Origin: Sphyrna mokarran
Taxonomy: Eukaryota
Assembly (NCBI GenBank): GCA_024679065.1
Contig: JAGIQG010000013.1
Coordinates: 19,096,001-19,160,000 of the forward strand
DNA length: 64,000 nt
Direction of reading: 5' to 3'
Part shown: positions 7,344 to 64,000 of the stretch, one piece after another
Numbering within the stretch: the stretch's first letter is position 1
Layout: each line of letters begins with the position of its first letter
Program-made: the position numbers and the translations under genes
Notes under the pieces: model-generated
What the model was told of the DNA's origin: nothing
Database searches by the model: none
What the model saw: the letters and a program-made list of their open reading frames with translations, nothing else

Positions 7344-7483
7344 GTTTGGAACAAAATCTCCAAGCACAGCAAGAAAAAATAAAAACAGCAAAAAAGGAGA
7401 AAGAGGATATGGAAGAAGCTATTGACGTTCTCCGAAAGGAGCTTAGCAAGACAGAGTTAGCCAGGAAAGAGCTCAGTATTAAG
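7344..7483 (+). CDS. CIP2A: CIP2A penultimate coding exon
   Basis: gacag acceptor, GTAAAT donor; 140 nt, phase 1-0; [46 protein letters not shown]. Confidence 0.92.
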
Positions 7484-17707: not shown

Positions 17708-17844
17708 TCAATTAGTATTAGCACAACAAACAAGGTATTGGCAACACAGCAGTACTATGATAAACAGAGCAGAGCTCAATGCAGCACCAAATACCGAAGT
17801 ATGTTCCCGTTCTGGTGTTTCCTCTTGCATGCTTGAGGCTGAGA
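17708..17844 (-). CDS. HHLA2: HHLA2 terminal exon: stalk plus hydrophobic C-terminus
   Basis: aaattacag acceptor in the phase 1 required; VSASSMQEETPEREHTSVFGAALSSALFIIVLLCCQYLVCCANTN-stop; AATAAA about 40 nt downstream. Confidence 0.72.
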
Positions 17845-20207
17845 CTGTAATTTGAACAAAGTACACTTTAACAAACCTTATAGAATTCACAGAAAACATA
17901 CTTCTAAGTTGAAAACCACAACACTAAATAGGAAAGTTAAATAAATAGCTGTAAGTCTGGAATAAAAATAGAAAATGCTGGAAATGACTAGAGTTCCTGA
18001 GGACATTTTAAGATTCTGATAATGTGATTCATTTTTAGGATTCATTGTTGGTCTGACGTATTATCAATGGATTTTATTTTTAATCACTTTTTCAATCATT
18101 CCTTGTGAATTTCTGCTAATTGGGCCTGGGACACTATATAGGACAGCAGCTGTTGCTTGTGAAAAAGTACACTTAATATATTTTGACTATGTTGCCTGTG
18201 TCTGTGTTTGAGCAATGTTGTCTTAAGTGTATTTTTGGCAATTAAGAGTCTTTTTATCAGCTTTGAAGAAATTGTTAAAAGAGCAAAGAGAATAAAAAAC
18301 AATGCTGCACAAGGAACAGGGCCTTAGGCCCATCAAATCTGTGCAATATCCTCTGTTTGCCTCCTGATCATGTGTCTATCAAGGTACATCTTGAACACTG
18401 CTAATGTCCCTGCTTTCATCACCTCCACTGGCAATGTGTTCCAGGCACCCAACACTCTGTGTGAAAAACTCCCACCTCCCCTAAACTTACCATCTCTCAC
18501 TATAAACCTGTGCTCTCTTATAGTTGACCCTTCCACCCCGGAATGCCCTCTGACTATCCATGCCTCTCATAACTTTGTTGAGTTTACTTAGGATGACACT
18601 ATCTTTGAACTACGTATTGATAAAATTGATTAACCATATTTGTAGGGTAGAGCATCTGTATTGGAGGGAAGCTTTTCTTTCAGTTTAGGTATCGCAGTAG
18701 GAAGTATTATTGACATTTGTTCTTAATGGGGAGTAATGTTTTTAATGATATAACCTCTGGTACTGTAGGTAATAAAAAATTTGTCTTCAGTCTACATGAG
18801 TCTAGTTACACAATGGCGTGGCAAAAGATGACCTGCAATCTAAGCCAATGGAAGAGGTGAATTTGGACTCTTTTCAAATGTGGAATTCTGGAAAAATGGG
18901 AAGTGGGGGTAAAAGTTGGAAAATTGAAGTCTTTTTTAATGCAGTTTTACCATATCTTTTGTAGTATGATTGAGACAGAGTGCAACATTACTTCAGAGAC
19001 AGAAGAAGAGAAAGACATCTCTGTGCAGGCAATGATCAAGGAATCCCAGGAACTTGTGGATAAGAGGTTTCTATGTTATCATCCTTATGGCACCATCCTT
19101 AGTTATTTCTACATTATTCAAATTGTTTTTCTTAAGCATTATTATATTTGTAGGATTTTAAGATGGAGGTATGAAACCCTTTAATTGAAATCTCTGTTTC
19201 TAACACTCAGACCCTCAATTGTGCTGGATCAAACAAAGTATGAGTAATTAGCATTTCTGAATCAATAGAACTTATTAAGCAAGATTTTGCATTTACTTAA
19301 CTAAAAATTGCAGAGATAACATATCACATATCTCATCAAAGCAGAACAGTAATCAATAAAAGCAAATTAATTTGGATGCTGGAATCTGAAACCAAAAGAG
19401 AAAATGCTGGAAAATCTCAGCAGGTCTGGCAGCATCTGTAAGGAGAGAAATGAACTGACGTTTCGAGGCCAAATAATGCTTTGTCAAGGCTATCGCCTGG
19501 ACTCAAAACATTACTGTAAGAAGAGGAAAGAAGTAATCAGTAAAATTGATAAACGCTAGACCAGATGACCAAAACAGCTGAATAGAAATCATAAGTCATC
19601 CTAAGGTATTGTGCTCTGATTGTACATAAGCAATACCCCTTTTGAGTACTGTAATCAGTTCTGTCGTGCAAGAGGAACTGAAATACTGGAGCTAGTGCTG
19701 CGGAGAGTCATGAAGCTGATTCTAAGATGCCTGACACTCACCTTGCCTGGAATCATTGCCTGGAAAGAAGTTGGCTAAGGGGTGATTTTATTGAGGCACA
19801 GAACACTAAATGGTATAAAAGGTAAGTCTGGAAATTTATTTCAAACTAAGTTATGAGAGTAAAACTATGGTGACAACTAATTCAAGAGGAAAAGGCAAAT
19901 CTAGGACTGATAGTAGAATCTTCTTCATACATAAGCAATCATCATGTGGAATATAAGAGGCAAGGCAAAAATACAATGATTATTTAGGTTACACGATGGC
20001 ATAGTGGTTAGCACTGCTGCCTCGCATTGCCAGGGGCATAGGTTCAATTCCTCCCTTGGGTCATTGTCTCTGTGGAATTTGCACTTTCTCCCTGTGCCTG
20101 CATGGGTTTCCTCCAGGTACTCCAGTCTCCTCCCACAGTCCAAAAATGTGCATACTAAATTGACCCTAGTGTCAGGAAGATTAGCAGGGTAAATGTGTGG
20201 GGGTTAT

Positions 20208-26200: not shown

Positions 26201-26936
26201 TAGGGCTAATGGTAGGATCTTAATAGTGTTGATGAACAGAGGGATCTTGGTGTATATGTGCATAGATCCCTGAAAGTAGGCAGTCAAGTCGATAAGGTTG
26301 TTAAGAAGGCATACGGAGACTTAGCTTTTATTGGTAGGGGGATTGAATTTCGGAGCCGCAACGTCATGTTGCAACTGTACAAAACTCTAGTGCGGCCGCA
26401 CTTGGAGTATTGTGTGCAGTTCTGGTCCCCACATTATAAGAAGGATGTGGAGGCATTGGAGAGGGTACAGAGGAGGTTTACCAGGATGTTGCCTGGTATG
26501 GAGGACAGGTCTTATGAGGAGAGGCTGAGGGATTTGAGGTTGTTTTCGTTAGAAAGGAGGCGGCTAAAAGGAGACCTTATCGAAACATATAAGATGATTA
26601 GAGGTTTAGATAGGGTGGACAGTGATAGCCTTTTTCCTAGGATGGAAAAAGCTAGCATGAGGAGACACAGCTTTAAATTAAGGGGTGATAGTTATAGGAC
26701 GGATATCAGAGGCAGGTTCTTTACCCAAAGGGTGGTTCGGGAGTAGAATGCCCTGCCTGCAGCGGTTGTAGATGCGCCAAGTTTGGTGTCGTTTAAGAGG
26801 TTAGTTGATAAGTATATGGAAGAGAAGGGAATGGTTTAGTTTGGAGGGTCATTGCTTTTTTCATAATTGGTTGGCGCAACATCGAAGACCGAAGGGCCTG
26901 TTCTGCGCTGTAATGTTCTATGTTCTATGTTCTATG
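23269..26936 (+). mobile_element. CR1 LINE, 5'-truncated, with part of ORF1 (esterase/SGNH-like) and disrupted ORF2 (APE endonuclease plus RT)
   Basis: ORF1 VHVGTHD..DGLHLN; ORF2 CLYFNARSIRNK, GDFN, SDHN, QHGF, FADDTK; frameshifts; (ttctatg)n tail. Confidence 0.95.
24733..24943 (-). mobile_element. Short CR1 3' end inserted in inverted orientation inside the CR1 above
   Basis: reverse complement of about 26715-26936; interrupts gaacctt|ggtgtacg, which is contiguous in the sister copy at about 29893-29908. Confidence 0.9.
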
Positions 26937-31893: not shown

Positions 31894-32183
31894 TTAAACA
31901 GATGCTGGATTGTGGCAACTAGAGGATTTTCACGGTAACTTCATTGCAGCATTAATGTAAGCTTGCTTGTGACACTAATTAATAAACTTTAATAGCTTCT
32001 GGATGTCCCCACTCAAAACTGTCCACACTCTGGTCTAGAGTTATGAGGATAGCAGCTTTAAGAAAGTATATTTATTTTACATTGAACAATTCAATGTAAA
32101 ACACTGATGCCTTATTTATATCCAAGGTTAAAGAATAAGTTAATCAAATTTTAACGTGTAGCTAAAAATTATTGACAGCTTAC

Positions 32184-32492
32184 CTGTTAGAGTGTAAGTG
32201 AACATTTGTGTCATATTTCTGGTTGTGACTTCACAGATATATTCTCCTGCATCTTCTAAAGTTATATGTTGCAGTATAAGGGATGAATGCATCTGGTTGA
32301 TTAACATGACTGGTTGGCTCTCCTGACAACTTGAGATTATATTTCCATTTTGATGCATTGATTCACATTTCATCACCAATTGAGAACTTTCTGTTTTTCT
32401 AAACTTCCAAATAATTTTCAACCCCTGATCGTCATTGGTGAACTCGCTGCAGATCATGGCAACTTTTTGATCCTCTGTTTCATTTAACCGCT
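32184..32492 (-). CDS. HHLA2: HHLA2 membrane-proximal IgV domain 2 exon
   Basis: tctttcag acceptor, GTAAGC donor; 309 nt, phase 1-1; AMIC..IIWKF..SSLILQHITLEDAGEYICEV; V-C-V architecture is characteristic of HHLA2 among B7 proteins. Confidence 0.88.
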
Positions 32493-32811
32493 CTGAAAGA
32501 AAAACCAAAATATTTAATGTGTAACGTAAAACATTATTTTACTTTCCCACTTTGTGTACTCAAGTGGCAATGGGTGGCACAGTGGTTAGCACTGCTGCCT
32601 CATAACCCCAGGGGCCCCGCTTGAAATTTGAGTCCCAGCTTGGGTCACTGTCTGTGTAGAGTTTGCATGTTCACCCCGTGTCTGCCTGGGTTTCCTCCGG
32701 GTGCTCTGATTTCCTCCCATAGTCGAAAGATGTGCTGTTTAGGTGGATTCACCATGATAAATTATCTCTCAGTGTATCTGAACAGGCACCAGAGTGTAGT
32801 GACCAGGCGAT

Positions 32812-33231
32812 TGTAATGACTCCAGCCGGGCTATTAAGGTTGGCTTGCAAGAGTATGAAGTGCCTGATAAGTCCTGCCTTCCACATCCACTGGGCACTGC
32901 AGGGACTGGGGTGCGTTATAGACTCCGAACACCACATTATGATTTAATGTTTTAAGTTTCCTTTGGACTTTGGTTTCTGTTCGGGCCGTCCCTCTTAATT
33001 TGTCCCTAAGTTTAATTTGAGCTCGTTTACTCGTTGGGCCGTTAAAAGACATACCTGATGAGCCCGAATTGATGGTTAAATCAGGGAGCCTCATGCTCCC
33101 TATTTAAAGCAGGTGTGTCAAACTCCCAGCCTGCATTCAGCAGGGAACAACTGGAGAGCTGGCTGTGTACAGATGTTGGTGTAAATAAAATAACTTGGTG
33201 ACAGGACTTTCCCCACCGTGGAGTTATTACA
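32812..33231 (+). mobile_element. Solo LTR (420 bp) inserted in a V-SINE
   Basis: TGTAATGACTCCA...TGGAGTTATTACA inverted termini; gcgat/gggat near-TSD; TATTTAAA at 33101-33108 and AATAAA at 33184-33189. Confidence 0.78.
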
Positions 33232-35206
33232 GGGATTTTCACAGTAACTTCATTGCAGTGTGAATATAAGCCTACTTGTGACAATGATAAATAAACTTTA
33301 ATTTAGGGAGCCCATTGTAAAATGGTTGTACTTATTTGTGCTGTAACACTAGGGGGAGCACTTCCTGCATATGGCGTAGGTGTAATTATAGTGATATAGA
33401 TCTTGATCTTGCATCTATTGCATGTTGCACCCTAAAGGAATGCCTGAAATTAAAGAGGATAGCAAGCCATCATAGTAACAGATGAAAATGGTAATAAGGA
33501 AGTAGCACCAGTGCCAGTAGCAATAACTAGTTCTCCAACTGGATGCTAAATGCAGATGTCTTCCAATGATTTGTTGGCTGTGTTGCCAAGCAAAACTGGT
33601 CCTTGTGCCTTTGCAGTCAGCAGCAGGGGTTATAATGTTGTAAAATATACAAGAAACAAGGATCCATTCTCTATGTATGTGAAGGTATGGCAGGTTGGCA
33701 TGGTGGCACAGTGGTTAACGCTGCTGCCTCACTGAATCTCTTGAATCTTCTATGATCTTGGCCATTTGTTAAAAAAAGGTTTTGCAAGCTGAGGTCCTGC
33801 AAATTGCAAATGCAGCTGGTTGCTTTAAGATAGGTGAAAAGTCTCCATTAGCTTAAAAGCTGTGATTAACTGCATCTTGTTTGAAACAACCTGTGCTGAT
33901 ATCAGTACATATTCCCTTATTCTGAACTGTTACCTTGGCCTTGTAAGTAACAAAACTCTTGCTTTATTAAATCAGTCTAAATTGGACTTGGCTAAATGCT
34001 GTCCTTGCTTGAAGGAGATAACATTCACTTTATGGGCAAAGTAACATCCCAAGATATATATGAGAATGGTTGCTATCTCACAGTGGAGCAATAGTGAACG
34101 TGCAGTTTCGATGGCAACTGGTGGTGTAGGTTTTCGACGTCTTTTTACTTGTGTACTGTATTTGTATTTACTTCTGCTGTTTCTAAGCACATGATCTGGG
34201 TGAAGTTATATTGTGTGTATGTGACTAATTGCTGTAAGAAGAGTGTAAAGGGGGAGATCCACCCGTTTGAGAGAGTATCACTTGGCTAAGTTCAGAGCAC
34301 TGTTCTGAGTTAGTAAAACAATCCTCAGAGAGCTTATACTTGCTTGAGAATGAAGGACTTTCTTATATAGATCAGTGTCTTGTTCTTGCATCAGGTACAT
34401 AAGAGTCTTTGAAAAACGAATTTGACATCACCTGCCTTCAATTCTGGCTTTATTGTCTGTGTGGTGTTTGCGGGTTCTCCCTGTGTCTGCGTGAGTTTCC
34501 TCCAAATGCTCTGGTTTCCTCCCACAGTCTAAAGGTGTTCTGATTAGGCGGATGAACCTTGGTATATGCCTGAAGTTACGATGATGGGGAAGAGGTGAGG
34601 AGGGAGTGGGGGAGATGGGCCTAGTTCAGATGCCCTTTTGGAGAGTTGGCGCAAATCCGATGGGCTGAATGATCTCCTTGTGCGCTGTAGAAATTCTACG
34701 GTTCCTTTGAAAATTCATAAAAATACCTGATAGCACTATAGGAACAATGAGAGCCCCCTATGTTCAGAGTGATATTATTGCCGCAGGAATCTTAGGAAGG
34801 ATGTGTTATTTATTTCTCTATCTGTGTAATGAAGAAAGCATTATAGGAATTGGAAAATAGCATTAATACCCAGCAACAATGTTTTGGTGGTAGTGATTGC
34901 AACATTGAATGACAATAAAGGACATCCCGAGATACAGCAAGGTAGAAGCCAGCAACATCAGATCATTTTGATACACCGAGCCAACTATATGCATTCCTTT
35001 TTTTATCCATGTGTTCCTTTGTTGCCTCTACACCTTATCATGGGTATCTGAGACACTGTGCACTGCACTGCCAGCGTCTGTGCCCTGATCAGTACCATCT
35101 CTTTCAATGAAAGGCTGCAGAGAACAAACAATTGCCAGCTTCTTGCAAAATTAGATCTGCACACACACACACCTACCCTGCCGTAGTGTTATAAAGGGAG
35201 ACCTTG

Positions 35207-35943
35207 GGTAGAATTCTATGTCCTCAGATTGGGCGCGATGTCCTCACCGACTCGTGTGATATTTCGCTAGGTGCGCACGTGCCCAGCCACAAATAAAGAG
35301 CTGACTTAAGGGGATCTGAAATCCCAATTAGCTGAATTTTACATTGGCCCTGTATGACTTTAAGCTCATCGTATGGACAAAATGGGAAGGTAGCCCAACC
35401 AGATTTGATGATGTTTAAGCAAGTATGGGAGGAAAGGTCCTTGCTGGCTGAGCAGCTGGGCCTTTGTAAGGGTGGGGTGGTGTTCTGAAGAGCTGACAGA
35501 GTGGTGTCCAGAGAAGATTTCTGTCCCCTGCCAACTGCATCCATGTCCTTTGGGTTAGGTGGGCTGGCCACTTTCCTCCCACCCCACAGCCTGCAGCAGT
35601 GCCCACAGGCAGTCACTTGAAAAACAGGCACCCGATGGATGGCTAAACTCCCCTCCCACCTGGTATAGCTTTCTCCTGTCACCACAGCTGTGATTGGCAC
35701 TCATTTGCAGCCTTTGGAGGCCTCTTTTAAAGTTTGTGACATGTCATCATGGGACATGATGCCCACTGTGCACCTACCCCCACTATCCTGCTCTGCCAAT
35801 GTGAATATGATTAGTGCCAACTGCCACTCAAATGGCAGCCAACATAATAGTGCGATTTTTAATTACTTCTGGGCAGAATCAGGATTTGAGGTTGCTTCAG
35901 TTTCCATCTGCCAATCGTGCAGCAGTGAGTTAAATTCTACACC
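35207..35943. repeat. GC-rich non-autonomous TIR-type element; similar decayed GC-rich elements at about 2297-2447, 3280-3611, 38450-39397, 40660-41320, 48000-48198, 53700-54320, 55390-55900
   Basis: gggtagaattct ... taaattctacac termini; shared ggcagtgcc/ggcactgcc motifs among several copies; no coherent ORF. Confidence 0.45.
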
Positions 35944-37514
35944 ACGCTACTAATGGCAGCTGGTCAGTGTATGATTTTGCTTTTAAAAGTGAAGGCAGCA
36001 GATAATGGGTGGGAGGGAGGATGTAACACAAATGCTTCAGCCACGTTCTATTCTCTGACACCCCAATTCAAGATGGAACTTCCATGAGGCAGCGCAGGCC
36101 CAACTGTATGATTTGCAAAGTACTTAAAAGACTAAACAGCAAGTGGTGCAAGCATAGCAAACAGCACCAAAACACTGAAATCACACAACACAGAGAAACT
36201 ATATTTTAGGTAATTTTAGGTGTAACAGATGCTTTGATGTGCCAAGGACAGAATTTTAACCAAAATCACCAGTTGGGCAAATGACAGAATCGAACATAAA
36301 GTGAGTTTTATATCTCATCAGATTTGATTCTATTGATGGCAGTGGATACTAACGTTGCCTGGAATCTCTACCCAGTTGATCCTGTTAGATCCTCACCAAG
36401 CAACTTATGATAAAATTGTCACCAGTTTATGCGGCTTTGCCCCTGCTGAATACGCAGCTAGAATTGCACAAGAGGCACCAAAAGTGGGATGGGGGATGGG
36501 GTGGGTGTGGGGGGGTGGTGTCTGAGGGCGAAGAGTGGAATCAGTAACCAGGGGCCTCATTTTCTCTTCTCACATCTGAAATTAAGTGTCCCCATGGTGG
36601 AATTATCCCGATGGGTGAGATTTTCCACTCTGTGTTCTTAAAGTGGAAGGATTGAAAAGCATCTGAACCAGCATGCGCAGCAGTGGAAAATCCCAACTGG
36701 AATCTCCTGATTGTTTTGACACCGGCTTTTTCTCATAGGATCATGATGGCCCTTCACAATGGTGGCTGGAGCATCGTGTAAACTGGTAATTGTTGATTCA
36801 AGTCAGTGCCTTGGTCCCTCGTCTGACTCAATTTATTTTTGACTTGTGACTTGAACAAAAATGATTTGTGTCTTGACTTGAGGAGGAGGGGGGCAGGAGG
36901 CAGCATGGAATTGACTTGGTTACAGCTTTACTAACTGACTAGCCATCGTGGGTAACATAATGCAAAAATACAACAAAGCGATTTGTTTCAAATTTGATCC
37001 CAGGAGCATAGAAAAAAAAAGTATCCTAGCAGTTCACTTAATTTGACAAAGAGGAAAATGTGAGCCATAGAAAATGCTGCAACTACAATTACTGTTGAAT
37101 TCAATATCTACAATTTAGATATTGAATTCAAGTATTGAAGAAATTCTGCAATATTTTACATAGTAGTAAACCCTAATGGGTGGCGTGGTGGCACACTGTT
37201 CAAGTGTGAACCCTGGTTCAATTCCTGGCTTGGGCTACTGTCTGAGTGGAGTTTGTACATTCTCCCCTTGTCTGTGGGTTTCCTCCAGGTGCTCCTGTTT
37301 CCTCCCATTGCCTGGAAGGTTAGGTGCTGGTTATGCATTGACCATACTGAATTACCCCTCAGTGTACCTGAATTGGCGTTGGAGTATGGTGACTAGGGCA
37401 TTTTCACAGTAACATCATTGCAGTCTTAATGTAAGCTGTCTTACGAGTAATAAATAAACTTTAACAACTGTAATATTTGGGAGGTTTCTTTAAGGATTAT
37501 TCATCAGTTGTTAC

Positions 37515-37808
37515 CTTGCATTTTCCAGATTGCAGTCCATGACTTCTGCAATCGTTCATTCTTAATATTGCATTTGTAGGTTTTATTTGACAGCCGATCA
37601 ATTTTCAAAATGCTTTTAATATTGTGTAATCCTTCTGCATCAATAGAGTCTTCTGAACTTGCTTGATTAGTTAACTTATTCCCATTTTCATCTTGCCATT
37701 GTAATGATGGTTTTGGATAGGCCCCAGAAACAGAGCAGATAATATTTACTCTGCTATTTCCAGCCGTTAGCATATTTGGGGAATCCAGTTTTACGTTCTT
37801 CCATTCAG
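37515..37808 (-). CDS. HHLA2: HHLA2 IgC domain exon
   Basis: ttcttcccag acceptor, GTAACA donor; 294 nt, phase 1-1; IICSVSGAYPKPSLQW..YKCNIKNERLQKSWTAIWKMQ (B7 IgC; the WTxxW end resembles HHLA2). Confidence 0.9.
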
Positions 37809-39482
37809 CTGGGAAGAAATAATAATCCATTATTTAGACAGCTTAGACTCTCAGATATTATTATTCAGCTGCACATGTAATATTGACAATCAAAAGCAGA
37901 AGAAATGTAAAACTGTCTGCTGATTCACTATCAGATACTTTAAACTATTGCACAAAGCTAAAATCCTCCACTTCTGAATAAGTATTAATGTATGACTTAA
38001 TATTATATTTATCATAATATTATATTTATCATAAAATTCATTTCAGTGTTAATGTAAACTTACTTGTGACTAATAAATAAACTTTAACTTTAGATTTCCT
38101 CTCACTCATTCTCAGGTTTGTTCTTTAAAGGTTTTGCATTATGTTGACAGCCCCATGTGTCAGCACAGCCTTGACAATATCCTGAATTTCATATCCATAA
38201 ATGATATGCATTGCTTTGGGATGTTTCATCCTAGTCAGTGCTGAATTAAACAGCATCCTTTGAAGTTTTATATCTGTGTTTGTCCTTCTGCATGTGAGGG
38301 TATTTTTGGGGTATGGGTTAAAGGCAGAGTGATGAAGTTGAGGTACAGATCAGGAATGAAAGACATTACCAGCCTTCATCTCTTCCTATCTTTCTATGTA
38401 CATTTTTTAAAAATTTATTTTATTTTGAGATTATATTATGAACATGGTTTCTTACTCCAGGTCTTACAACCTCGTCCCACCCGACTTTTGGCGAGGTGAG
38501 GTGGTAAGATTGGGAGAGAGGCAAAAAATGAGAAATGCATCTGGTTTCTTTCTCCACTCATCACACAGGTCCTGTTTAGCTAAAGAAATTAGCTTCATGT
38601 CCTGGAATGGTGCGAAGCCGATTTAAATGTTAATGACAAGCTTGGTTATCATCCGGACTCAGTCAGCTTAACCGCCTCACCGCTCGAGGCTCCCCCCACC
38701 CTGTCCCAGCGAGAATCACAGATGATCTTCACCAGCAGAGACCAGTCATGATGGTCTCACTGGAAGGATTGGATGTCAATGAAGTCCTCCAGGTTGTCAG
38801 GGTAAGAGCAGGGCAGTGCCCATGGGGCATGGAAGTGCCTGCCTGGCATCCTGGCACCTTGGCAGTGCCAACTGGACAGCCTGGCACTGCCCGCTGGGTA
38901 CCATAACTGTGTTGGGGTGGCGATCAGGGTGGGAGGGAGGTAACTTTGCAGATGGGCACGATCAGCTGAGAGAAGAATGGGTATTCTGCAAATGAGGATC
39001 ATTGATGTGGATGGGTGGTGATATCTGTGTGGTGGGTGAGGGGGTTTAATCAGCACAGGGGATGATTGATGGCGTGGATGGGGAAGGTCCGATGTCTGTT
39101 GAGGGGTAGACTGGCATGAGGCAATTGGCGTGGGGTGGCACCCGATGTCCATGGGGCAGGTGGGGGGGAAGGGGGTAGGAGATCTCTGGAGGATCTGGGC
39201 AATGGCGCTCAAAGACCTCAGCATCCGGTTTTCCCTGTGAGCTCAGGCCCCACTCTCCCCTTGCTGGCGAGAATCACACCATGGCACTTTTTTTATGCTT
39301 AGTGTGCGACTCATAGCTTGCCCAAAAAAACCAGTGCGATTCTCTCCTGTTTTCACATTCGTTTGGCAGTTAGATTTTCTTTTGTAAGGTCACGCCTTTA
39401 GAGTTTTCACATTCTATTAATTTCTAATCAAAACACAGCTCATAGAAAATACATTTTCAATGGAAAATGGCACATATCTGAC

Positions 39483-39809
39483 CTGCCACTTGTAGCGAGG
39501 TAACCAATTCAAATTTTCCTTCTGACGTACTGACGTAACATTGGTACTGTCCTTCATCATCCTTATTAACTCCTGTAAGCAGAAGGGATGCATTGCCATT
39601 CGTTATTTTATCGATAAAAATCTTTGTCCTTCCTTCGTATCTTTTTGGTTGCTTGGATAGCTGATCTGTCTCTCGATAAAAGCTGTGAACGACAATGGTC
39701 TCTGTAGGCAAATCACGTGTCCAGTGAAGCACTATCTCAGATAAAGGTGCTGGTTGAAATTTACACGGCAAAACAACATCCTTGGAAATGATGCCTGTAA
39801 TGCTCGCAT
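39483..39809 (-). CDS. HHLA2: HHLA2 IgV domain 1 exon
   Basis: ccttttag acceptor, GTCAGA donor; 327 nt, phase 1-1; DVVLPC..IVLHW..VHSFY..RYEGRT..NGNASLLL..DEGQYQCYV is a typical B7-family IgV. Confidence 0.9.
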
Positions 39810-39914
39810 CTAAAAGGAATTAAGCAAAATTAGTTTTTTAGGTTAAAATAAAATCACATTAAATTTCTGATTCAATTTCCAAATAGCAGCCAATATTACT
39901 TCAGTGTAAACTAT

Positions 39915-41870: not shown

Positions 41871-41955
41871 CTGCGCTCAGTAGATGAAAAATTCCAAGAG
41901 CATAAAACATGACAATTTGACATAACATTCTTGTTCTCCCTTCAATCAATTTCAT
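41871..41955 (-). CDS. HHLA2: HHLA2/B7-H7 signal-peptide exon (exon acceptor at 42045; in-frame ATGs at 41955 and 41928)
   Basis: (MKLIEGRTR)MLCQIVMFYALGIFHLLSA then G|GTAACA phase-1 donor; hydrophobic leader; acceptor ctgtttcttttcattgatttttaag upstream. Confidence 0.8.
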
Positions 41956-49399: not shown

Positions 49400-51208
49400 A
49401 CTGTGCAGTTGTGGAAATCACAGAGTCGTTATAGTGGGAGGTTTTAATCTCCCTAGGGTAGATTGGAAAGTACCTAGAGCTGGGGGTTTGGACGAGCAGG
49501 GAATTTGTAAAATGTGTACTGGAAGGATCGTTGGAACAGTATGTGGCTAGCCCGACTAGAGAAGGGGCTATATTGGATTTAGTTCTGAGTAATGAGCCAG
49601 GGCAGGTAGTTGATGTTGTAGTAGGGGAACATGTGGCTAACAGTGACCACAATTCTGTCTACTTTAGGATTCAGATGGAAAAGGATGCTTGTTGCCCTAG
49701 GGGCAAGGTGCTGAATTGGGGGAAGGCTACCTACGGTCAGATTAGGCAGGAACTTATGGAAACTGATTGGGAACGGCTGTTCGAGGGTAAGTCCACGTTA
49801 GGCATGTGGGACTCTTTCAAGGGAATACTGAAAATGTTGCAAGATAGATATGTGCCAGCTAAGAGGAAAGATGGGAAAGGTAGGATTAGAGAGCCGTGGA
49901 TTACTAGGGATATTGAGGACTTGGTTAGGAAGAAGAGAGAGGCGTATGATAGGTCAAAGCAGCTGGGAACGGAAACAGCGTTGGAGGAATATAGAGAGAG
50001 TAGGAGGGAGCTCAAATGGGGAGTTAGAAGGGCAAAAAGGGGGCATGAAATGATTTTGGTGAATAGGATTAAGGAAAATCCAAGAAAATTCATATATTAG
50101 GAATAAAAGGGTGGTTAGAGGAAAAATCAGACCTCTTAGGGACAGAGGAGGGGAACTGTGGTTAGAGCCTGAGGGAATGGCAGAGATCCTGAATGAATAC
50201 TTTGCATCAGTATTCATGAAGGAAAGGGGCTTGTTGACAACTCCTGTCTCTGAGGGAGCTGTAGACTAGTTGAGGGAAATATCCATACCGAAGGAGGAAG
50301 TGTTAGAGCTTCTAGATAGCATTAAAACTGATAAACCTCTGGGGCCTGATGGCATTTATCCCAGGCTGCTTAGGGAGGTGTGAGGTGAAATTGCTGGGCC
50401 TCTGACGCAAATCTTTGTCTCTTCTTTGGACACAGGTGAGGTCCCAGAGGACTGGAAAATAGCTAAAAAGGATACTAGGGATAACCCTAGGAATTATAAG
50501 TCAGTGAGTTTGACGTCAGTGGTAGGGGAGCTGTTGGAGAGGATTCTTAGAGATAGGATGTATAGGCACTTAGAGCGTTGCAATCTGATTAGGGATATGC
50601 AGCATGGATTTGTTAAGGGGAGGTTGTGCCTTATGAATCTGGTAGAATTTTTTGAGGAGGTGACGAAAACGGTGGATGAAGGGCGAGCCGTTGATGTCGT
50701 CTATATCGATTTTAGAAAGGCGTTTGACAAAGTCCCTCATGGGAGGTTAGTTGAGAAGGTCAAGGCTCATGGGATACAAGGACAGGTAGCTAGATAGATA
50801 AGTAACTGACTTAGTAATAGGAGACAGAGAGTAATAGTGGAAGGGTGTTTTTCTAGCTGGAGGTTGGTCACTAGTGGTGTGCTGCAAGGGCTCGGAACTG
50901 GGACCTTTTCTATTTGTAATATATATAAATGACTTGGAAGAGGGAGTAAGTGGAGTGATCAGCAAGTTTGCAGATGATACAAAGATGGCTGGACTTGCGG
51001 ATAGTGAGGAGCATTGTCAGGCGATGCAGCAGGACATAAATAGGCTGGTAGCTTGGGCAGATAGATGGCAGATGGAATTCAATCCTGATAAATGTGAGGT
51101 GATGCATTTCGGAGAAAGAATGTAGTGGGGAGGTATATGATAAAGGGTAGACCTATTAAGAGTATAGAAACGCAGAGGGACCTGGGGATGCAGGTGAACA
51201 AGTCTCTG
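49400..51208 (+). mobile_element. CR1 ORF2 fragment lacking its own 3' end
   Basis: PTREGAILDLVL, SDHN, QHGF, FADDTK; stops abruptly at a T10 run. Confidence 0.9.
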
Positions 51209-53958: not shown

Positions 53959-56869
53959 GTTTTTCCCCTTGTGGTGAAGGGGTGGCTCTGCTGCTTATGT
54001 GAATAGAGGTTGCTTCAATAATTGAGAGAGGGGGTGAGTTTCCTATGTCTATGGGAGGTGGCGTTGGGTGGGGGGGGAATACCTTCTAACACTGGTCGGT
54101 GCACTCTTTAAAGATGGTGGTCTGCTCTTTGTGGAGCTGGCATTGTCTGCTCCATCAGGCCTGCCCTGCCCTGCTCCGCCAGTTTAACAGCAGAAAACAC
54201 ACCCCCAGCATAGAGCGAATGGAGTGCCAGAGAATCTAGACAAAACTCGCCTATGCAACTGGAGAGCTACATGCTGATTTTCTCACTGAACCTGACAAAT
54301 CATCAGCAGATTCCGCCCTCTGCTTCCCTCTCCACAGGTGCTGCTAGACCTGCTGTGCGCTGAGCCTTTTCAGAATTTTTCTGTCTTTACTCCAGGTTTC
54401 CAGCAGTATTTTGCTTTGATTTTAAAGCGCTGTGGATAAATAAGTTTACACATCGCTTTCAGTGAAGCAGCAGGAGTAACGGTGAGGAGGTTGATGACGG
54501 AATGAACGCTCCTGCCTTTAATTTAAATATATTAAAATAAATTTAAATGGGGAGGGGGGGAGGGAGGAGTTTCCCTGCCATATGATACCCGCAGGTGGGA
54601 AATTACCCCCTTTCGCCAACATGACATTGCGTTGGCGAGGTTTAGAACAGTTTATGCAAAATGGGAAGCTGTCGAAGGGAGTACGCAAGGGGCACAACGG
54701 TTAATATAGCTCACAAACTAACCTGGCACTGCCTCCCTGGCACTATGACTCCTGGCAGTGCCCACCAAATTAGGGACTGTCAGAGTGGATGCAGAAAAGC
54801 TGAGGGTTTGATTTTAACTGTGTGTGTGTGTGTGTGTGGATGGGTTTTGGGTCAGTTCAAATTGAGTCTGATGGGCCAAATGGCTGATCACAGCAACTTG
54901 GCTGTCAAACAATCCTTGCCAGGTAGAAGGGGAAGCAGTGGTATTTTAACCTGACAGGCTGAGTAGCTGATTAAAAAAAAATTTATTTAATCAATGGAGT
55001 TTTCTAAAATTCATTTTAACAATAGATTTATTTCAGTAATCAATACAAGGCACCACACCTTCAGAAAGTAGCACAGTAAGCCTGGTCAACAATATAAAAT
55101 TACCAGGCACATTGTGCAGATCAGTGTGACACAAACTGTTGTTAGGCAACCGGTTTCAAGATAACATCAAGCACATTCCACATAGCTTTGCTGATGAATT
55201 TGTTCTGTCAATTTATAAATGGTGCTGCCAAGTAAACCTGTCAGACTTTAACCTAGTGTTGTGAGACTTCTTAATGTGCCCGCCCCAGACCAACGCTGGC
55301 ATCTCCACATCATGACTCCCCATTACCACCAGTGCCAGTCTTCAGCCTCTTCCATTCACTCCGTGTGACATTATTAGGAAGGCAATGGTCAGGAATCTCC
55401 CAAAAAAATTCTAAATGCCCAGCTTACGTAAAAGCTGGACGAACGCTAGCTGTTTTTTTTTGCAGTGGGGTTTTCAAAGTGCATCTTCCACATTCTGCCG
55501 AGTGCCTCAGGGAGATTCACGCCGAAAACCAGGGGCAGGGCCTACTCTCACTGGAAAGTCCACTGGAAAGTGGCACCGAGCGGGGCCACTGTGCATGTGC
55601 TAATCTCCGCTACGACAGATCAGCACATGCGCAATGTTGGCCTCCAATCACTGGCCAGCCCTGCAGCAACTCAACATTGGCTGTGCAACCCCACTCCCCC
55701 CACCCTCAGATTGCTGGCCTCCCAGATGTCTTCCTATGTTTTCACTCACCCCTATACTAGCCCTGATTCCTCCCTCACACCTCCCCGACAGTCCTGACCT
55801 CCCAGCCTCAATGGCCAGCCTTGATCAACTCTTTCCCTCTGTCTGACTGAGAGTGGGAGCGGGAACCCGCTAACTAAAACTAAAACAATTACAGACCCAT
55901 TAGCCTGTTCCTAGCCATTGGTAAAGAGATGTAATGGGTCATTATTAGAACAGCATGTTGAGATATTCTGGGATAGGAAGATTTGAGGGCTGAAAACTTT
56001 AAGTTTAAGCCTATTTATTAGTGTCACAAATAGGCTTACATTAACACTGCAATGAAGTTACTGTGAAAATCCCCTAGTTGTCATACTCTGGCACCTGTTT
56101 GAGTACACTGAAGAAGAATTTAGCACAGCCAATGCACCTAACCAGCAGGTCTTTTGGACTGTGGAGGAAAACGAGCACCCGAAGGAAACCCACACAGACA
56201 CAGGGAGAACGTGCAGACTCCGCACAGACAGTAACCTAAGTTGGGAATCGGATCTGAATCCCTGGTGCTATGAAGTAGCGGTGCTAACTACTGTGCCATC
56301 ATGCTATTCCCCCAAGAAGGGAGTCACCAGCTATCAAGATCAGCATCATTGTTGGCTGTAAAGACCTGGCCCAGTAATTTACTCGAATAATGAGTAAATT
56401 CGAGTAAATGAGTGGCATTGGACACAAGTGAGAAGAGAAATGCTCTCAAAGGTCATATGAATGTTATACTATTGAAAAGATCAGGTACTGAATATTTGAG
56501 TTGAGTGGCTTGCCCCCTGACCCACAGAGTCTTTCCATCACCTACACTGCCCAAGGTAGGAAAGTCTACCCTTTTTTCTCTTCGTACAGCAAATGAATAT
56601 TTAGATATTTTTATGGGTAAGAATGTGACTGGCATAATGTGGGATATAGCTGAATAAGGCAATCAGTTACGGTTACACTGACTCAGCTCAGAAATTTAAC
56701 AATGTGTAGTTAAATGTCCATTGTGAATCATTGTTAGCTCTCGCAATGATTGAAAGCGTTAATCAGTAAGTAAATAATTTTATATTGGGCGCAAAGTCAC
56801 ACAGAAATGAGCATAATTATATCATAAGCATTGCTTGTCACTGAACTAAAAGACATACCTCTATTTACA

Positions 56870-57340: not shown

Positions 57341-58651
57341 ATAAAGTTGCAAACCAAAAGAGAAGCAAACCATTGAGGCAATGACTTGTTTATATATTTT
57401 TTATTTTACTTTAACGTCACACAAATCCTCCTGTTCTAGTCAATACTGTAAGAAACTACAACAGACATTAACAAATGTGCAGAATTAGTATGTTATTGGC
57501 AAATGAATTTCAACAGGATGAGTGTGGATTATCTTGGTATTAATGATGAGGAATCACATATTACTTAAAAAATGGAAACTTGAATAGGATAGAGGAGGGT
57601 ATGGAATACAAATCATTAAAAGCAGCGACATAGCTTAATAAGGTATAATATTTTAAAGTTTATTAGTCATAAGAGTTACATTAACACTGCAATGAAGTTA
57701 TTGTGAAATTCCTCTGGTTGCCATAATTCAGTGCCTGCGCAGGTCAATGCACCTAATAAGCACGTCTTTCAGAATGTGGGAGGAAACCCATGCAGACATG
57801 GGGAGAATATGCAACTCCACACATACAGTGACCCAAGCTGGGAACCGAACCAAGATCCCTGGTGCTGTGAAGCAGCAGTGCCAGCCACTGTGCTATCGTG
57901 CTGCTGCTTTCTGTAGCCATGCAGATCAACATTGGGATGGCGCAATTTTTGTTTATCACCTCATCTGTAAAATTTTATGTTAGCCTGCATGACTGCAGCA
58001 TCGATTCTCTGTTAGTCAATCTATCTGGAGCTGCTTAGCCAATAACATGACGCGGGCAGGCACACTGTTTATTAAAAGGAGGCTATCCACCGGCTCTCGT
58101 ACCAGAGAGAAAACCAGTCTTCAACAGAGCAGCAGGCCAGCAGGAGCTCCCCCCGCCTCCCCAACCCTCCCACTGGTATTGATTCTGCACTGGGAGCTCT
58201 GGTCACTGAGGTGGACTTCAGGAGGGAGGCAATGTTTCCCCGGGTGGGATAGGAAGCCCTTCAGATTCATCTTGAAGAGGAAATGGGACCACATGACTGT
58301 TGTCTGGTGTTACAGATGTGGCAATGAAACAGGGAGAGAAAGAATGGCATCAGGCAGGTGATCAGACTGTTTTATTTCAGGGTAGCGTCCATTCGTAGCA
58401 TTCTGCCATGCGCTCTTTTTCAGCACCAATGATGCTTGGGGTACCCTTGGCGGTGTTGTGTGGCCCACACTCAGTAAACAATGACAGGCCTTGTGCTATG
58501 GCGACACCGCTGTGTCAGCCAATTTTATGCTCACAGGAGTTTCTATTTGTTGGAATATCAAATAGTCGTCAATATAAGATAGTTTCAAAATGGTGTAAAC
58601 GAGCATTTGAACATTTTGAATAATGCACCTTACAGTCTTTGAATAAACTGT

Positions 58652-58779
58652 TTATAAGTAATACGATTGCTCTGGACCAAGCAGAGAGTAGATGACGGTA
58701 TCATCAGTGTTCGGTTGCTCTCTCCCACTTTGGCTACTGTCAGGCACGGCTGATTCCTTTGTCCGTGAAACCATTTTTT
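58652..58779 (-). CDS. Orphan terminal exon encoding an ITIM-bearing cytoplasmic tail (unidentified receptor gene extending beyond the window)
   Basis: ttcctgtttggcttgtttcag acceptor, phase 1; KMVSRTKESAVPDSSQSGREQPNTDDTVIYSLLGPEQSYYL-stop; AATAAA at 58376-58371 and 58073-58068. Confidence 0.55.
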
Positions 58780-58917
58780 CTGAAACAAGCCAAACAGGAA
58801 ATTTCTCAGAGAAGCTCAATAGACAAAACAACAGCAAAGGTTACAGCTCATTAATACAGGTCAACTTCAGTATGGAGAGATTGCTTTAAAATGTAAGCTA
58901 GATAAATTAATTTATTC

Positions 58918-59400
58918 TTATTTGATTTGATTTAATTTATTATTGTCACATGTACTAACGTGCAGTGAAAAGGATTGTTTCTTGCGCGCTATAAAGAGAA
59001 AACATAACATTCGTAGAGAAGGAAATGAGAGGGTGCAGAATGTAGTGTTACAGTCACAGCTAGGGTGTTGAGAAAAATCAACTTAATGCAAGGGAAGTCC
59101 ATTCAAAAGCCTGACAGCAGCAGGGAAGAAGCTGTCTTGAATTTGTTGGTATGTGACCTCAGACTTTTGTACTTTTTTCCCGATGGAAAAAAGTGGAAGA
59201 GAGAATGTGTCTGGGGTGTAGGGTCTGTAATTTTTCTGGCTGCTTTAATGAGGAAGCAGAAATGTAGCCAAAGTCAATAGATGGGAGGCTGGTTGGCATG
59301 ATGGATTGGGCTACATTTACAACCTTTTGTAGTTTTTTTGCTGTGCTGGGCAGAGCAGGAGTCATACCAAGCTGCGATACAATCAGAAAGAATGCTTTCA
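58918..59400 (-). mobile_element. Rex1/Babar LINE 3' fragment
   Basis: KKLQKVVNVAQSIMPTSLPSID; same 3' UTR. Confidence 0.78.
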
Positions 59401-60249
59401 TTTATGGGAAATGGGCGTAACTGGCTAAGCCAGCATCTATTCCCATCTCTAGTTGTCCTGGGAAAGAGGTAGTGAGCTGCCTTCTTGAACTGCTGCAGTC
59501 CATATGGTTTAGATATACACAGTGCTGTTAAGGCAGAGAGTTAGAGAATTCTGACCATGTTGGTGGTGTGGTGTATTAGGCAGCAATATTAGAAAGAAAG
59601 AAACTGCAACAGCTAGAAACCTGAAATGAAAAGACAAAACTGTAAATAGACAATAAGACAATCAACATATGCAAAGATAGAAGAGAAGTAAGATGTTTCT
59701 TGTGTGTACACGTCATTAGATCATCTGATTGAATGTGATGGGTACTTGAATAAGGTTTGAAAAATCAGGGAGAAGAGGAGTTATATTAAAACAGAGATTC
59801 AGTAATTTTGGGTGGCACAGTGGTTAGCATTGCTGCATTACAGCACCAGGGATACAGATTCAATTCCGGCTTCAAATGACTGAGTGTGTGGAGTTTGCAC
59901 GTTTTCCCCGTGTCTGTGTGGGTTTTTTCCGGGTGCTGTGGTTTCCTCCCACAGTCGAAAAATGTGCAGATGAGGTTGATTGGCCATGCTAAATTACCAG
60001 TCTCTAGAATGCAGAAGAAGGCCATTCAGCCCATCAGGCCTGCAGCAACAACCACCCCACATAATTACCCTGCTAATACCTCAGATAACAAAGGGCAATT
60101 TAGAATGGGCAATTCACCTCATCTGCACATCTTTACGTTGGCACAGTGCGTCACTCACCTGATGAAGGGGCAATGCTCCAAAAGCTCATGTTACCAAATA
60201 AACCTGTTGGACTTTAACATGGAATAGGCACAGTAAGTAGTCTCACAGA

Positions 60250-62040
60250 TAAGGCAAAGGAGAATCTAAAGAGCTTCTACAAATACATAAAGGGCAAAAG
60301 AGTAACAAGGGAGAGAATAGGATCTGTTAAGGATCAACAAGGTCATCTATATGTGCATCCATAAGAGATGGGTGAGACCCTAAATGAGTATTTCTCATCA
60401 GTATTTATTATTGAGAAAAGCATGGAAGTTAGGGAACTTGGGGAAATAAATAGTCATGTCTTGAGGAGTATACATATTACAGAGAAAGAGGTACTGGAAG
60501 CCTTAAAGCGATGTGCTTTAGATAAACCCCCCGAACCTGATGAAGGATATTCCAGGACATTGTGGAAAGCTAGGCAGGAAATTGCAGGTCCCCTAGCCGA
60601 AATATTTGAATCGTCAATAGTCATAGGTGAGGTGCCTGAAGATTGGAGAGTGGCAAATGTTGTGCCTTTGTTTAAAAGGGCTGCAGGAAAAAGCTTGGGA
60701 ACTACAGGCCAGTAAGCTTTACATCTGTGGTGGAGAAGTTGTTGGAAGGTATTTTGAAAGATAAGATCTCCAGGCGTATAAAGATGCAAGAACTGATTAA
60801 GGGCAGTCAGCATAGCTTTGTGAGTGGAAAATCATGTCTCACAAATTTAATTGCATTTTTTGAAGGGATAACCAAGAAGGAAGATGAGGGCAGTGCAGCT
60901 GATGTCTACGTGGACTTTAGCAAGACCTTTGACAAGGTACCACTTGGTAGGTTGTTGCATAAAATTAAATCTCCCAGGATGCACGGTAAAATATCTAAGT
61001 TGATACAAAATTGGTTCTTGACAGAAGCCAGGGGATGTTTGTAGAGAGTTGTTTTTCAAACTGCAGGCCTGTGGCCAACAATGTGCCTCAGGGTTCAGTG
61101 CTGGGTCCACTGTTATTTGTCATTTATATTAATGATATGAATGAGAATATAGAGGGCATGTTTAGTAAGTTTGCAGATGACACAAAGATTGGTGGCACAA
61201 TGGACAGTGAAGAAAGTTATCTCCAGTTGCAACGAGATCTTAATCAATTGGGCAAGTGGGCTGACGAATGGCAGATAGACAAATGTGCGAGGTGATGTAT
61301 TTTGATAGATTGAACCAGGGCAGGACTTACTCAACTAATGGTAGGGCACTGGGGAGAGTTACAGAATAAAGAGATCTAGGGATACTTGTTCACAGTTCCC
61401 TGAAAGTGGAGTCACAGGTGGACAGAGTGGTGAAGAAGGCATTTGGCATGCTTGATTTCATCGGTCAGAACATTGAATATAGGAATTGGGATATCTTGTT
61501 GAAGTTGTACAGGAAATTAGTAAGGCCACACTTGAAATACTGTGTGCAATTCTGGTCACCCTATTATAAAAGCATATTATTTAATCATAAAGAGTGCAGA
61601 AAAGATTTACTAGGATGCTAGCAGGACTTGATGGATTGAGTTATAAGGAGAGGCTGAATAGACTGGGACTCTTTTCTTTGGAGCTTAGGAGGCTGAGGGG
61701 TGATCTTATAGAGATCTATAAAATAATAAGAGGCATAGACAAGGTAGAGTGTCAATATCTTTTCCCAAAGGTAGGAGAGTTTAAAACTAGAAGTTTTATG
61801 GTGAGAGGGGAGAGATACAAAAATGTCCAAAGGAGCAGTTTTTTCACACGGAGGGAACAAGCTGCCAGAGATAGTAGTAGAGGCAGCTACAATTTTATCT
61901 TTTAAAAAGCATTTAAACAGTTACGTAGATAAGAAGGGCCAAATACCAGCAATTGGAATTAGCTTTGGGGTTTTAAAAAAAGGACCAACATGGACAAGTT
62001 GGACCGAAGGACCTGTTTCCATGCTGTAAACCTCTATGAC
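60250..62040 (+). mobile_element. Degenerate CR1 ORF2 3' half
   Basis: EDWRVANVVPLFK, PQGSVLGPLLFVIYIND, FADDTK, CR1-type tail. Confidence 0.9.
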
Positions 62041-63084
62041 TATGACCCCAGACCAACGCCAGCAACTCTATATCTTTGGGCTGTGGGAGGAAACCAGGAT
62101 ACCCGGAGGAAACCCACACAGACATGGAGAGAATGTGCAAACTCACACAGACAGTCACAGGAGGCTGGAATTGAACCTGGGCCTCTGGCGTGTGAGATAA
62201 CAGTGCTAATCACTGTGCCACCATGCTGCCCATGAGATGCTGTAGGTCATCAGCAGCTGCAGTATTGTACTCAATCACAATCTGTAACCATACATCTTTT
62301 AGGATAATAAGGACCTTCGAAGTGGCTTAGCAAGCCAATCAGTTACCTTTGACACAGAAAGAAACATCCCTTAATATTTTCCCAGAAATATAAAGAAAAG
62401 AATGCTGAGTCAAAGGAAGAGGAGGGCTGATGCATTGCCTTATCAAAGAAATGAATTATAAAGAGGGAAGTGGAGAAGCTTGTGGAAGAGATTCTAAACA
62501 ATGTTGGCACAGTGGTTAGCACTGCTGTCTCACAGCACCAGAGGCCCAGGTTCAATTCCCAGCTTGGGTCACGGTCTGTGCAGAGTCTGCACATTTTCCC
62601 TGTATCTGTGTGGGTTTCTGATTTCTTTCTATAGATCTGTGGGTTCGGTGGATTGGCCGTGCTAACTGATCTGAGTGTCAGGGGGATTAGCAGGGTAAAT
62701 GTGTGGGGTTACGGGAATAGGGACCTGGGTGGGATTGTGGTCAGTTTGGACAATATGGACTGAATAGTCTCCTTCTGCACTGCAGGGATTCTATAAATGG
62801 GATCGAGATGGCTGGAGCAGTACTGGTACAATCTCTAAGTAACGTCATGGCCAGAGAATATCATTTGTTCAGATAGATTTTGTTTCGATGATTGTGCCAG
62901 GCCAGAATCTGATTGGAGCGATTCATATAGCGAGCTGTTTGAAAACTGGTCACGGATTTGGAAGCTTTGGTGAAAAGACAGAAAAATTATGGACAGAAAC
63001 TCATTTTTTAGCAGCAACAGTTTAACATGAAATTGCATAGGCAAAGATGACAATGATATAGAATGATATTCCAGTATATATTAC

Positions 63085-64000
63085 AAAGAATAAAGAAAAT
63101 TACAGTCTTTGGCCCTCCAAGCCTGCACTGACCATGCTGTGATTAATATAAAACCCCTTACCTTTCAGGGACCATATTGCTCTGTTCCCACCCCAATCAA
63201 GTATTTGTCAAAATGCCCCTTAAAAGTCACTACTGCATCTACTTCCACTACCTCCCCCAGCAACGAGTTTCAGGCACCTACCACCCTCTGCGTAAAAAAT
63301 CTGTCTCATACATCTCCTTTAAACTTTGTCCCTCACACCTTAAAGCTATGCCCCTAGTAATTAAATCTTCCACTCTGGGAAAAAGCTCCTAACTATCCAA
63401 CCTGTCCATGCCTCTCATAATCTTGTTGACTTTTATCAGGTCACCCCTCAACCTCCATCGTTCCAGTGAGAACAAACTAATTTTGTGCAACTTCTCCTCA
63501 TAGCTAATGCCCTCTATAACAGGCAACATCCTGGTAAATCTCTTCTGTACCTTTTCTAATGCCTCTACATCCTTCTGTGGCGACAAGAATTGAACACTAT
63601 ATTCCAAATGCAGCCTAACTAAGGTTCTATAAAGCTGCAACATGATTTGCCAATTTTTAAACCCAGTACCCTGGCCAATGAAACTAAACATGCTGTCTGC
63701 CTTCCTGACTACCTTCTCCAAATGCATTGCCACTTTCATTGACCTGTGCACTTGCACACCCAGATCCCTTTACCTATCAATACTCTTAAGGTTCTGCCAT
63801 TTACTGTATATTTCCTATCTGTATTAGATCTTCCAAAATGCATTACCTCCCATTTGTCAGGATTAAATTCCATCTGCCAACTCTCCGCCCAAGTCTCCAA
63901 ACGATCTATGCCCTGCTATATCCCCTGATGATCCTCATCGCTATCCACAAATCCACCAACCTTTGTGTCGTCCGCAAACTGACTAATCAAACCAGTTGCA
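63085..64000 (-). mobile_element. Degenerate CR1 3' part, continuing beyond the window
   Basis: LQLYRTLVRLHLEYSVQF..VQKRFTRML. Confidence 0.88.

Follow-up and report, generated by a model that had tools for sequence, protein, structure and literature searches.

The segment at 58652..58779 (minus strand) of the window, by which we mean the whole 64,000-nucleotide stretch of Sphyrna mokarran DNA analyzed here (contig C335:19,096,001-19,160,000), is the genuine spliced last exon of a cartilaginous-fish receptor gene, which we call g1. The product of g1 is a VJ-C1 receptor of the immune-cell surface and likely provides the inhibitory arm of a trio of receptor genes next to HHLA2, with a tail tyrosine predicted to serve as a dock for the lipid phosphatase SHIP. 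The parts of this picture that were directly observed are the gene structure, a splice from transmembrane (TM) exon to tail exon in a relative, the orthologs, the motifs of two paralogs (g2 and g3), and near-identical C1 domains in g1 and g3. Features outside the window were found in 200 kb of upstream sequence added to it, and are given in extended coordinates (C335 position minus 19,096,000).

The tail exon and structure of g1

Translation, the splice junction of a relative, and identity to Mustelus together define the exon as a 42-codon cytoplasmic tail plus stop. On the minus strand a pyrimidine tract and an AG at 58780 form the acceptor, two bases finish a split codon (phase 1), and 41 further codons, or 42 counting the split one, lead to a TAA ending at 58652. 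The tyrosine motif VIYSLL occupies 58696-58679 and is followed by an invariant Gly. The 3′ UTR (57659..58651, minus strand) contains AATAAA at 58376, 58073, and 57664, and the alignment of the relative's contig extends into it from 58779, as far as 58298. The phase-1 acceptor, 42-residue frame, motif, and downstream AATAAA had all been picked out by an earlier, sequence-only reading of the window, and each is present where it was placed. That reading had also described the segment as free of repeats and CpG-retaining, which agrees with five CpG in 128 nt (observed/expected 0.76 vs. 0.28 for the window) and zero repeat cover when checked within 264 kb. A 301-nt query spanning the exon has a single match in the genome, namely itself.

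The ITIM motif by itself is not beyond chance: six-frame translation of the window contains 152 matches to the consensus, and 5 of its 170 unique acceptor-started frames have one. It is the splice junction and the conservation among orthologs that lift the exon above chance. The frequency of the bare consensus is what would favor reading the segment as an intronic frame that arose by chance, or as an untranslated 5′ exon belonging to HHLA2; the junction from the TM exon and 12 ortholog tails already refute this, and we consider its probability negligible.

The segment lies 5′ of the HHLA2 leader and is not the HHLA2 tail, as had been claimed. The leader exon (41871..41928) was placed by weak tblastn matches (Cetorhinus E 0.38, Amblyraja E 0.10) together with an ATG and a phase-1 donor, so that 16.7 kb separate the g1 stop from the HHLA2 ATG at 41928, with g1 directly upstream. 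The HHLA2 Ig exons span 32140..39819 and comprise IgV1 (~39463-39810; Pfam, 57% identity to Amblyraja HHLA2 and 48% to frog HHLA2), IgC (~37507-37810), and IgV2 (~32180-32500), the latter two recognized by Pfam and a V-C-V alignment. The likely HHLA2 tail itself, a candidate TM/terminal exon that carries no ITIM, is near 17800 (17711..17846, bounds approximate; E 0.007 for the C-terminus of Amblyraja HHLA2 in tblastn). All of these are on the minus strand. The possibility that the tail exon belongs to another HHLA2 copy was rejected, as the 200 kb upstream hold no HHLA2-like exon.

Splicing into 58779 was named by the earlier reading as a check on the gene, and a 1098-nt contig from a related species (organism B) provides it for that species. 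This contig, which comes from runs X2 and X3 of one study and whose label as RNA is an automatic guess, aligns from 58298 to exactly 58779, with 49 other letters and 8 gaps, and then leaves the genome. Thirty of its 169 loose letters were compared with the 3′ end of the TM exon and showed two mismatches, while the next best place for them in 264 kb has 10. A 172-nt contig from run X1 lies entirely within exon and UTR and has no junction. In the related species a stop comes right after the motif (alignment table, minus 2 rows), so the last five tail residues are dispensable.

The TM and Ig exons sought on the minus strand beyond the window are likewise present. From the 5′ end, g1 consists of a leader exon (extended 77644-77707), a joined VJ exon (extended 75713-76072), a C1 exon (extended 74349-74654; Pfam C1-set E 3.7e-19), a TM exon (extended 67197-67301, whose 3′ end matches the end of the relative's contig), and the tail exon, all on the minus strand; the last intron is 8.4 kb long, with its in-window part at 58780..64000. 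Every one of the introns between these five exons is phase 1 and GT-AG, and the spliced frame is open throughout, encoding 320 aa with leader or 298 aa from V to stop. The hydrophobic core of the g1 leader includes an Asp that might weaken export in Sphyrna mokarran; in four orthologs the residue is Tyr, His, or Gln.

Orthologs, paralogs, and C1 evolution

A profile of the three V domains retrieved full-length relatives. With a V-C1 profile at E 1e-20, 29 of 2911 candidates were obtained, 28 of them named cartilaginous-fish proteins and one unnamed; the search missed even the sturgeon rows of its own query and thus does not bound the bony-fish range. A first homolog search with the V frame gave no match among proteins of 97-312 aa, which does not imply absence given that most orthologs are longer. 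Over the 298 aa that follow the leader, g1 shares 81% identity with Mustelus XP_078088173; its identity to Carcharodon XP_041066806 is 64%. Orthologs have been modeled in sharks, rays, and a chimaera, with NCBI models for 11 of 12 species and a UniRef entry only for Pristiophorus. The sequence-only reading had proposed a hidden, unannotated inhibitory receptor: the locus does hold a distinct receptor gene of the Ig superfamily whose tyrosine motif is conserved, but in relatives it is neither hidden nor unannotated. RefSeq and GenBank models (XP_078088173, XP_041066806, NP_001279395) represent the same gene, under automatic names that convey no family, function, or HHLA2 linkage. Names of g1-type orthologs include “immunoglobulin light chain-like”, “SIRP-alpha-like”, “tapasin-related”, “hypothetical”, and “uncharacterized”, and the Ig names given to V-C1 relatives are kappa or lambda light chain-like. 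Judging by accession class, the Callorhinchus gene (NP_001279395 and a GenBank protein) appears to rest on cDNA.

The 12 orthologs were chosen from 34 proteins by their g1-type tail, leaving out of the count one Rhincodon model that ends before the TM. In the V-domain tree g1 groups with nine other proteins at 96/94, all nine having the tail motif; these are nine of the 12 orthologs, and the remaining three, Callorhinchus (unplaced in the tree), Hemitrygon, and Chiloscyllium (both outside it), were assigned by tail and BLAST. Gene g1 is a real, conserved, and mis-named receptor with an inhibitory-type tail.

Three related genes lie between HHLA2 and BBX. Gene g2 (extended 163760-172486, minus strand) has its leader at 172486, V at 170461, C1 at 169349, TM at 168063, and tail at 163974; g3 (extended 206143-219135, plus strand) has its leader at 206143, V at 208549, C1 at 213237, and TM at 219026. 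A C1-set exon follows the V exon in all three genes and their orthologs. The g2 tail contains YVNI; Y-[VA]-N is present in seven of seven g2 homologs, five of which fit the full CD28H tail consensus as given in PMC11599192. All seven g3-type homologs with a modeled TM have an Arg within it. Thus g1 and g3 form a linked pair, one with an inhibitory-type tail and one with a charged TM, inverted and 139 kb apart at C1. From these motifs, the likely outputs of g1, g2, and g3 are off, boost, and on, respectively. In the V tree the g3 clade (96/90) and g2 clade (98/96) are recovered, and the deep branches are not resolved. The gene order is repeated in Chiloscyllium punctatum, where locus tags 2799, 2801, and 2802 are g3, g2, and g1. 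A candidate g3 tail exon (extended ~220,969-221,060, plus strand) matches the predicted tails of g3 homologs in two frames, and may be frameshifted or spliced differently in Sphyrna mokarran.

Beyond g3 is a DUF2028 gene, which we take to be BBX. The sequence-only reading named IFT57, the direct human neighbor of HHLA2; here that gene is on another contig (C771, 51,288,000-51,307,000), head to head with a dynein heavy chain-like gene and ~80 kb from an ABITRAM-like gene, both presumptive names taken from the look of the frames. In human, CD47 sits at the place corresponding to the g3-BBX interval. Neither that interval here (extended 219,136-246,000) nor 200 kb around IFT57 showed a CD47-like frame; genome searches with CD47 and the Pfam V-set_CD47 model were silent, as were their controls, which leaves CD47 unplaced and not absent. 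Where human has IFT57 and CD47, this locus has the three V-C1 genes.

The C1 and V domains of g1 and g3 have different histories. In the window, Mustelus, Scyliorhinus, Carcharodon, Pristiophorus, and Hemitrygon, within-species C1 identity between g1 and its g3-clade partner is 94, 98, 100, 94, 96, and 82%, while V identity is 50, 48, 56, 54, 63, and 44%, with the Carcharodon and Pristiophorus partners assigned by the V tree alone. Between species, the C1 of g1 in the window is 89, 79, 82, 76, and 68% identical to that of the other five in the same order. Accordingly the C1 tree pairs the genes by species in five shark pairs (99/93, 96/82, identical, 95/91, and 87/86), less clearly so in Hemitrygon, and the V tree sorts by gene. 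In Sphyrna mokarran the two C1 exons (extended 74349-74654 and 213237-213542) are 97% identical as DNA; among 101 codons three differ synonymously and six by residue, and beyond the exon the similarity extends only ~25 nt on the 5′ side and 8 nt on the 3′ side. Of 374 candidate C1 domains elsewhere in the genome, 150 were scored, and none of these is more than 38% identical.

Because C1 identity reaches 82-100% within each of six species vs. 44-63% for V, we infer that g1 and g3, which are inverted copies, have repeatedly undergone gene conversion confined to C1, which would keep this domain alike and V distinct. Paired receptors usually have near-identical ligand-binding domains; here the opposite holds, with concerted evolution of C1 only, between an inhibitory-type and an activating-type gene and recurring across several lineages, a pattern that wants explaining. 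As conversion would equalize C1 while V stays distinct, the ligands or surfaces recognized by g1 and g3 probably differ.

Comparison with known receptor families

The V domains of g1 and g3 have EIPPP and GxG; g2 keeps the PPP and does not have GxG. A V search of the Sphyrna mokarran genome gave five matches outside the cluster, one TCR-like V and four CD28H/HL/X-like V exons (contigs C838, C1 with two, and C2), which group with their own orthologs in the tree; the CD28-family labels of these exons were given by eye, except for HL2, whose accession is in supplement S3 of PMC11599192. The CD28H/HL1/HL2 clade (95/95) excludes g1-g3. A V-C1 protein from sturgeon joins g2 at 94/88 on a long branch, and joint grouping of g1-g3 with this protein is not rejected (p-AU 0.49) in a tree built without amniote TMIGD2, CD28, and SIRP rows. 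The trio also has an extra, nearly invariant Cys pair, placed by eye as in the amniote TMIGD2 rows of Quiniou S3-B and absent from three chondrichthyan CD28H rows. Two further V-domain receptors with proline-bearing CDR3 and GxG, Rhincodon XP_048475988 and Cetorhinus XP_078392759, fall outside the named CD28-family clades.

The CD28 family has been defined as nine single-V members, and five synteny blocks have been described (Quiniou et al., 2024, PMC11599192). Because their C1 domain breaks the single-V definition, g1-g3 are kept out of this family; by motif and tree, their V domains carry CD28H-family motifs and are not orthologous to known members. CD28H/TMIGD2 and CD28HL1-3 (PMC11599192) share with the trio a joined VJ, an E-I-P(PP) CDR3, and GxG, CD28H has a YxN consensus that fits g2, and CD28HL3 has an ITIM, as does the g1 tail. 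The trio differs by its extra C1 and its HHLA2-BBX locus, where the neighbors (HHLA2 and the DUF2028 gene) match none of the five blocks, and CD28H-, HL1-, HL2-, and CD28X-like genes lie elsewhere in the genome. The trio is not found in the sections of the 2024 survey covered here, and a motif search of the whole of its supplement S3 places the g1 tail motif in none of the tails (PMC11599192). In the literature searched there is no description of an HHLA2-BBX receptor cluster, so its novelty is provisional. A CD28H-like V combined with an antigen-receptor-type C1 bears on the kinship of co-signaling receptors and non-rearranging VJ-C1 genes.

SIRP-alpha/beta resemble the trio in their non-rearranging VJ and C1 ectodomain and in clustering of inhibitory and activating paralogs. 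Canonical SIRP has two C1 domains and four tail tyrosines, and its activating member has a TM Lys. In contrast, g1 has one VJ exon, one C1 exon, and one conserved tail Tyr, the TM residue of g3 is Arg, the CDR3 is CD28-like, and it is C1 rather than V that has been homogenized. Structure and sequence searches were less discriminating: among 50 rows of a fold search, Z scores of 14-16 tie TCR V, VCBP3, PD-1, Siglec-15, and CD28, with SIRP and TMIGD2 not among the rows listed; ESM Atlas returned generic V-set and V-C1 clusters, with a SIRP-alpha cluster at 0.97 tied with a TAPBP-like one; and PDB sequence searches were dominated by antibodies and TCRs. The top PDB sequence match of the g1 C1 is shark UrIg2 (score summed over three stretches). 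The trio shares a single-exon VJ with UrIg/UrIg2 and NKp30, a C1-set domain with UrIg, and a TM Arg with NKp30, which is V-only, but has one C domain only and no visible MHC or antigen-receptor-complex linkage. The sequence-only reading had drawn parallels to BTLA, TIGIT, and CD96 of human 3q13, from which g1 differs in being VJ-C1-TM with one conserved Tyr motif. The ectodomains of these three have no C1-set domain, BTLA and TIGIT have two tail motifs, and CD96 has three Ig domains. KIR3DL3, whose role as a single-ITIM inhibitory HHLA2 receptor (PMC10173190) is the one that had been proposed for g1, has D0-D1-D2 domains and signals through SHP-1/2, and homology is not expected.

Predicted output and ligand

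The SHIP assignment derives from the pattern of conservation around the tail tyrosine. Across the 12 orthologs Tyr, +3 Leu, and +4 Gly are invariant, -1 is always Ile or Val, +2 is Leu in 11 and Met in one, -4 is acidic in 10, and -2 is Val in five, Ala in five, Thr in one, and Gly in one. The textbook ITIM consensus, (S/I/V/L)xYxx(I/V/L) (PMC12151841), fits the Sphyrna mokarran tail and five of the 12 orthologs. Conservation of the ITIM among chondrichthyans, which the earlier reading had made a check, therefore holds for the Tyr, +3 Leu, and +4 Gly and not for the full consensus. SHIP prefers Leu at +2 and ignores the N-terminal residues, and the SHPs prefer a hydrophobic residue at -2 (PMC3418551, citing Sweeney 2005), which is not conserved here. 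Since 11 of the 12 orthologs have +2 Leu and only five have -2 Val, SHIP is favored over SHP-1/2: we put predicted docking of SHIP at somewhat better than even, and consider docking of SHP-1/2 rather unlikely. The preference of SHIP leaves the conserved -1 Ile/Val (12/12) unexplained.

In the proposed mechanism, ligand engagement would lead a Src-family kinase to phosphorylate the g1 tail tyrosine, and the phosphorylated tail would bind SHIP1/2 and damp PI3K-dependent activation; g3 would rely on its TM arginine to signal by way of an ITAM adaptor, and the output of g2 would be co-stimulation through Grb2/GADS. The ITIM of FcgammaRIIB has Leu at both +2 and +3. FcgammaRIIB is like g1 in its tail motif, with SHIP recruitment as the predicted output (PMC6433993, PMC3418551). 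Its ectodomain is unrelated, and the likeness ends at the motif.

Three other functions would make different use of the same features. Y-x-x-Leu doubles as an adaptor-protein endocytosis signal. In all 13 sequences compared, 9-13 residues separate the motif from the C-terminus, and 12 of the 13 also have a di-leucine. Together with a di-leucine inside the FcgammaRIIB ITIM that drives endocytosis (PMC6433993) and the CD28/CTLA-4-like PPP loop of the V domain, this could mean that g1 acts as CTLA-4 does, capturing and internalizing a shared ligand; we regard it as improbable, since an acidic -4 residue is typical of Src-family phosphorylation sites and V domains as divergent as those of g1 and g3 make no common ligand evident. 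A SIRP-alpha-type receptor acting through SHP-1/SHP-2, with a pathogen protein or CD47-like self marker instead of a B7 ligand and with g3 as activating counterweight, fits the VJ and C1 ectodomain, the activating paralog, the automatic SIRP-alpha-like names of several orthologs, the ESM Atlas cluster, and the consensus ITIM of Sphyrna mokarran itself. However, the single C1 and single conserved Tyr, the Ala, Thr, or Gly at -2 in seven of 12 orthologs, and EIPPP in the V domain all argue against it, and a decoy pair would need V and not C1 to be homogenized; we hold this possibility to be fairly unlikely.

Finally, g1-g3 might be non-rearranging TCR- or light-chain-like dimer chains that pair through C1, with the C1 of g1 and g3 kept identical for one partner or for each other. 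The VJ-C1-TM layout, the concerted evolution of C1 in six species, and the match to UrIg2, whose C1 domains dimerize (PMC12227049), are in line with such pairing. Against it, the g1 stalk has no spare cysteine, conversion between inverted duplicates needs no selection for pairing, and a C1-set match is unspecific, as 5147 PDB sequences give one at E 1e-5, so that we give it a low probability. An inhibitory VJ-C1 receptor with a SHIP-type tail is the reading we prefer.

The ligand of the trio is most likely a B7-type cell-surface protein. HHLA2 would be the leading single candidate, although as a specific assignment it is doubtful. In humans KIR3DL3 is a single-ITIM inhibitory receptor for HHLA2 (PMC10173190), and CD28H also binds HHLA2 (PMC11599192). 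By analogy, g1 could be an ancient inhibitory HHLA2 receptor and g2 its co-stimulatory counterpart, roles that KIR3DL3 and TMIGD2 fill in humans, an account we think unlikely to hold as a whole. It draws on the direct adjacency of g1 to HHLA2, the EIPPP and GxG of the V domains with CD28H/CD28HL-like best matches outside the cluster, the TMIGD2-like Cys pair, and the CD28H consensus of the g2 tail; the CD28H-like V and the g2 neighbor are better reasons for an HHLA2 ligand than those first advanced. HHLA2-like and cluster genes are moreover on equal-sized contigs in Amblyraja (60,892,660) and Cetorhinus (106,584,623), and in both copies of Atlantic sturgeon (57,810,186 and 56,076,761), which suggests that they share a chromosome in skate, basking shark, and sturgeon. 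A common contig is not adjacency, and the sturgeon HHLA2-like and cluster accessions are 63 and 60 apart. A separate shark CD28H ortholog (C838, syntenic CD28H) could serve HHLA2, the CD28H clade does not include the trio, and Ig-superfamily genes abound in the region (human 3q13), so neighborhood counts weakly.

In its fullest form, which we likewise regard as a minority possibility, the locus would be an ancestral linked checkpoint module in which three VJ-C1 CD28H relatives read HHLA2 with opposite outputs: g1 as the inhibitory receptor before KIR and a SHIP-type brake, g2 as a Grb2-type co-stimulator, and g3 as an ITAM-adaptor activator. The trio would then be a missing C1-bearing branch of the CD28 family that predates the shark/bony-fish split. 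The KIR3DL3 family is mammalian and HHLA2 is older, which raises the question of how HHLA2 signaling was restrained earlier, and this locus offers three genes. If HHLA2 is not the ligand, what stands is still a conserved, mis-named shark receptor trio, with an interest mainly for comparative immunology.

Other features of the window include, at 55,300-55,700 between g1 and the HHLA2 leader, a GC-rich segment that has several CpG, is little covered by repeats, and is possibly a promoter or 5′ exon of HHLA2. Tail to tail with HHLA2 is a coiled-coil exon (7319-7480, plus strand) that we take to encode the CIP2A C-terminus; in human, MYH15 lies between CIP2A and HHLA2. Many decayed LINE fragments with reverse-transcriptase and endonuclease frames, presumably CR1/L2-type, are found at 20,159-31,807, 49,462-51,125, and 60,365-61,905, and such fragments fill the HHLA2 introns and the interval between g1 and HHLA2.
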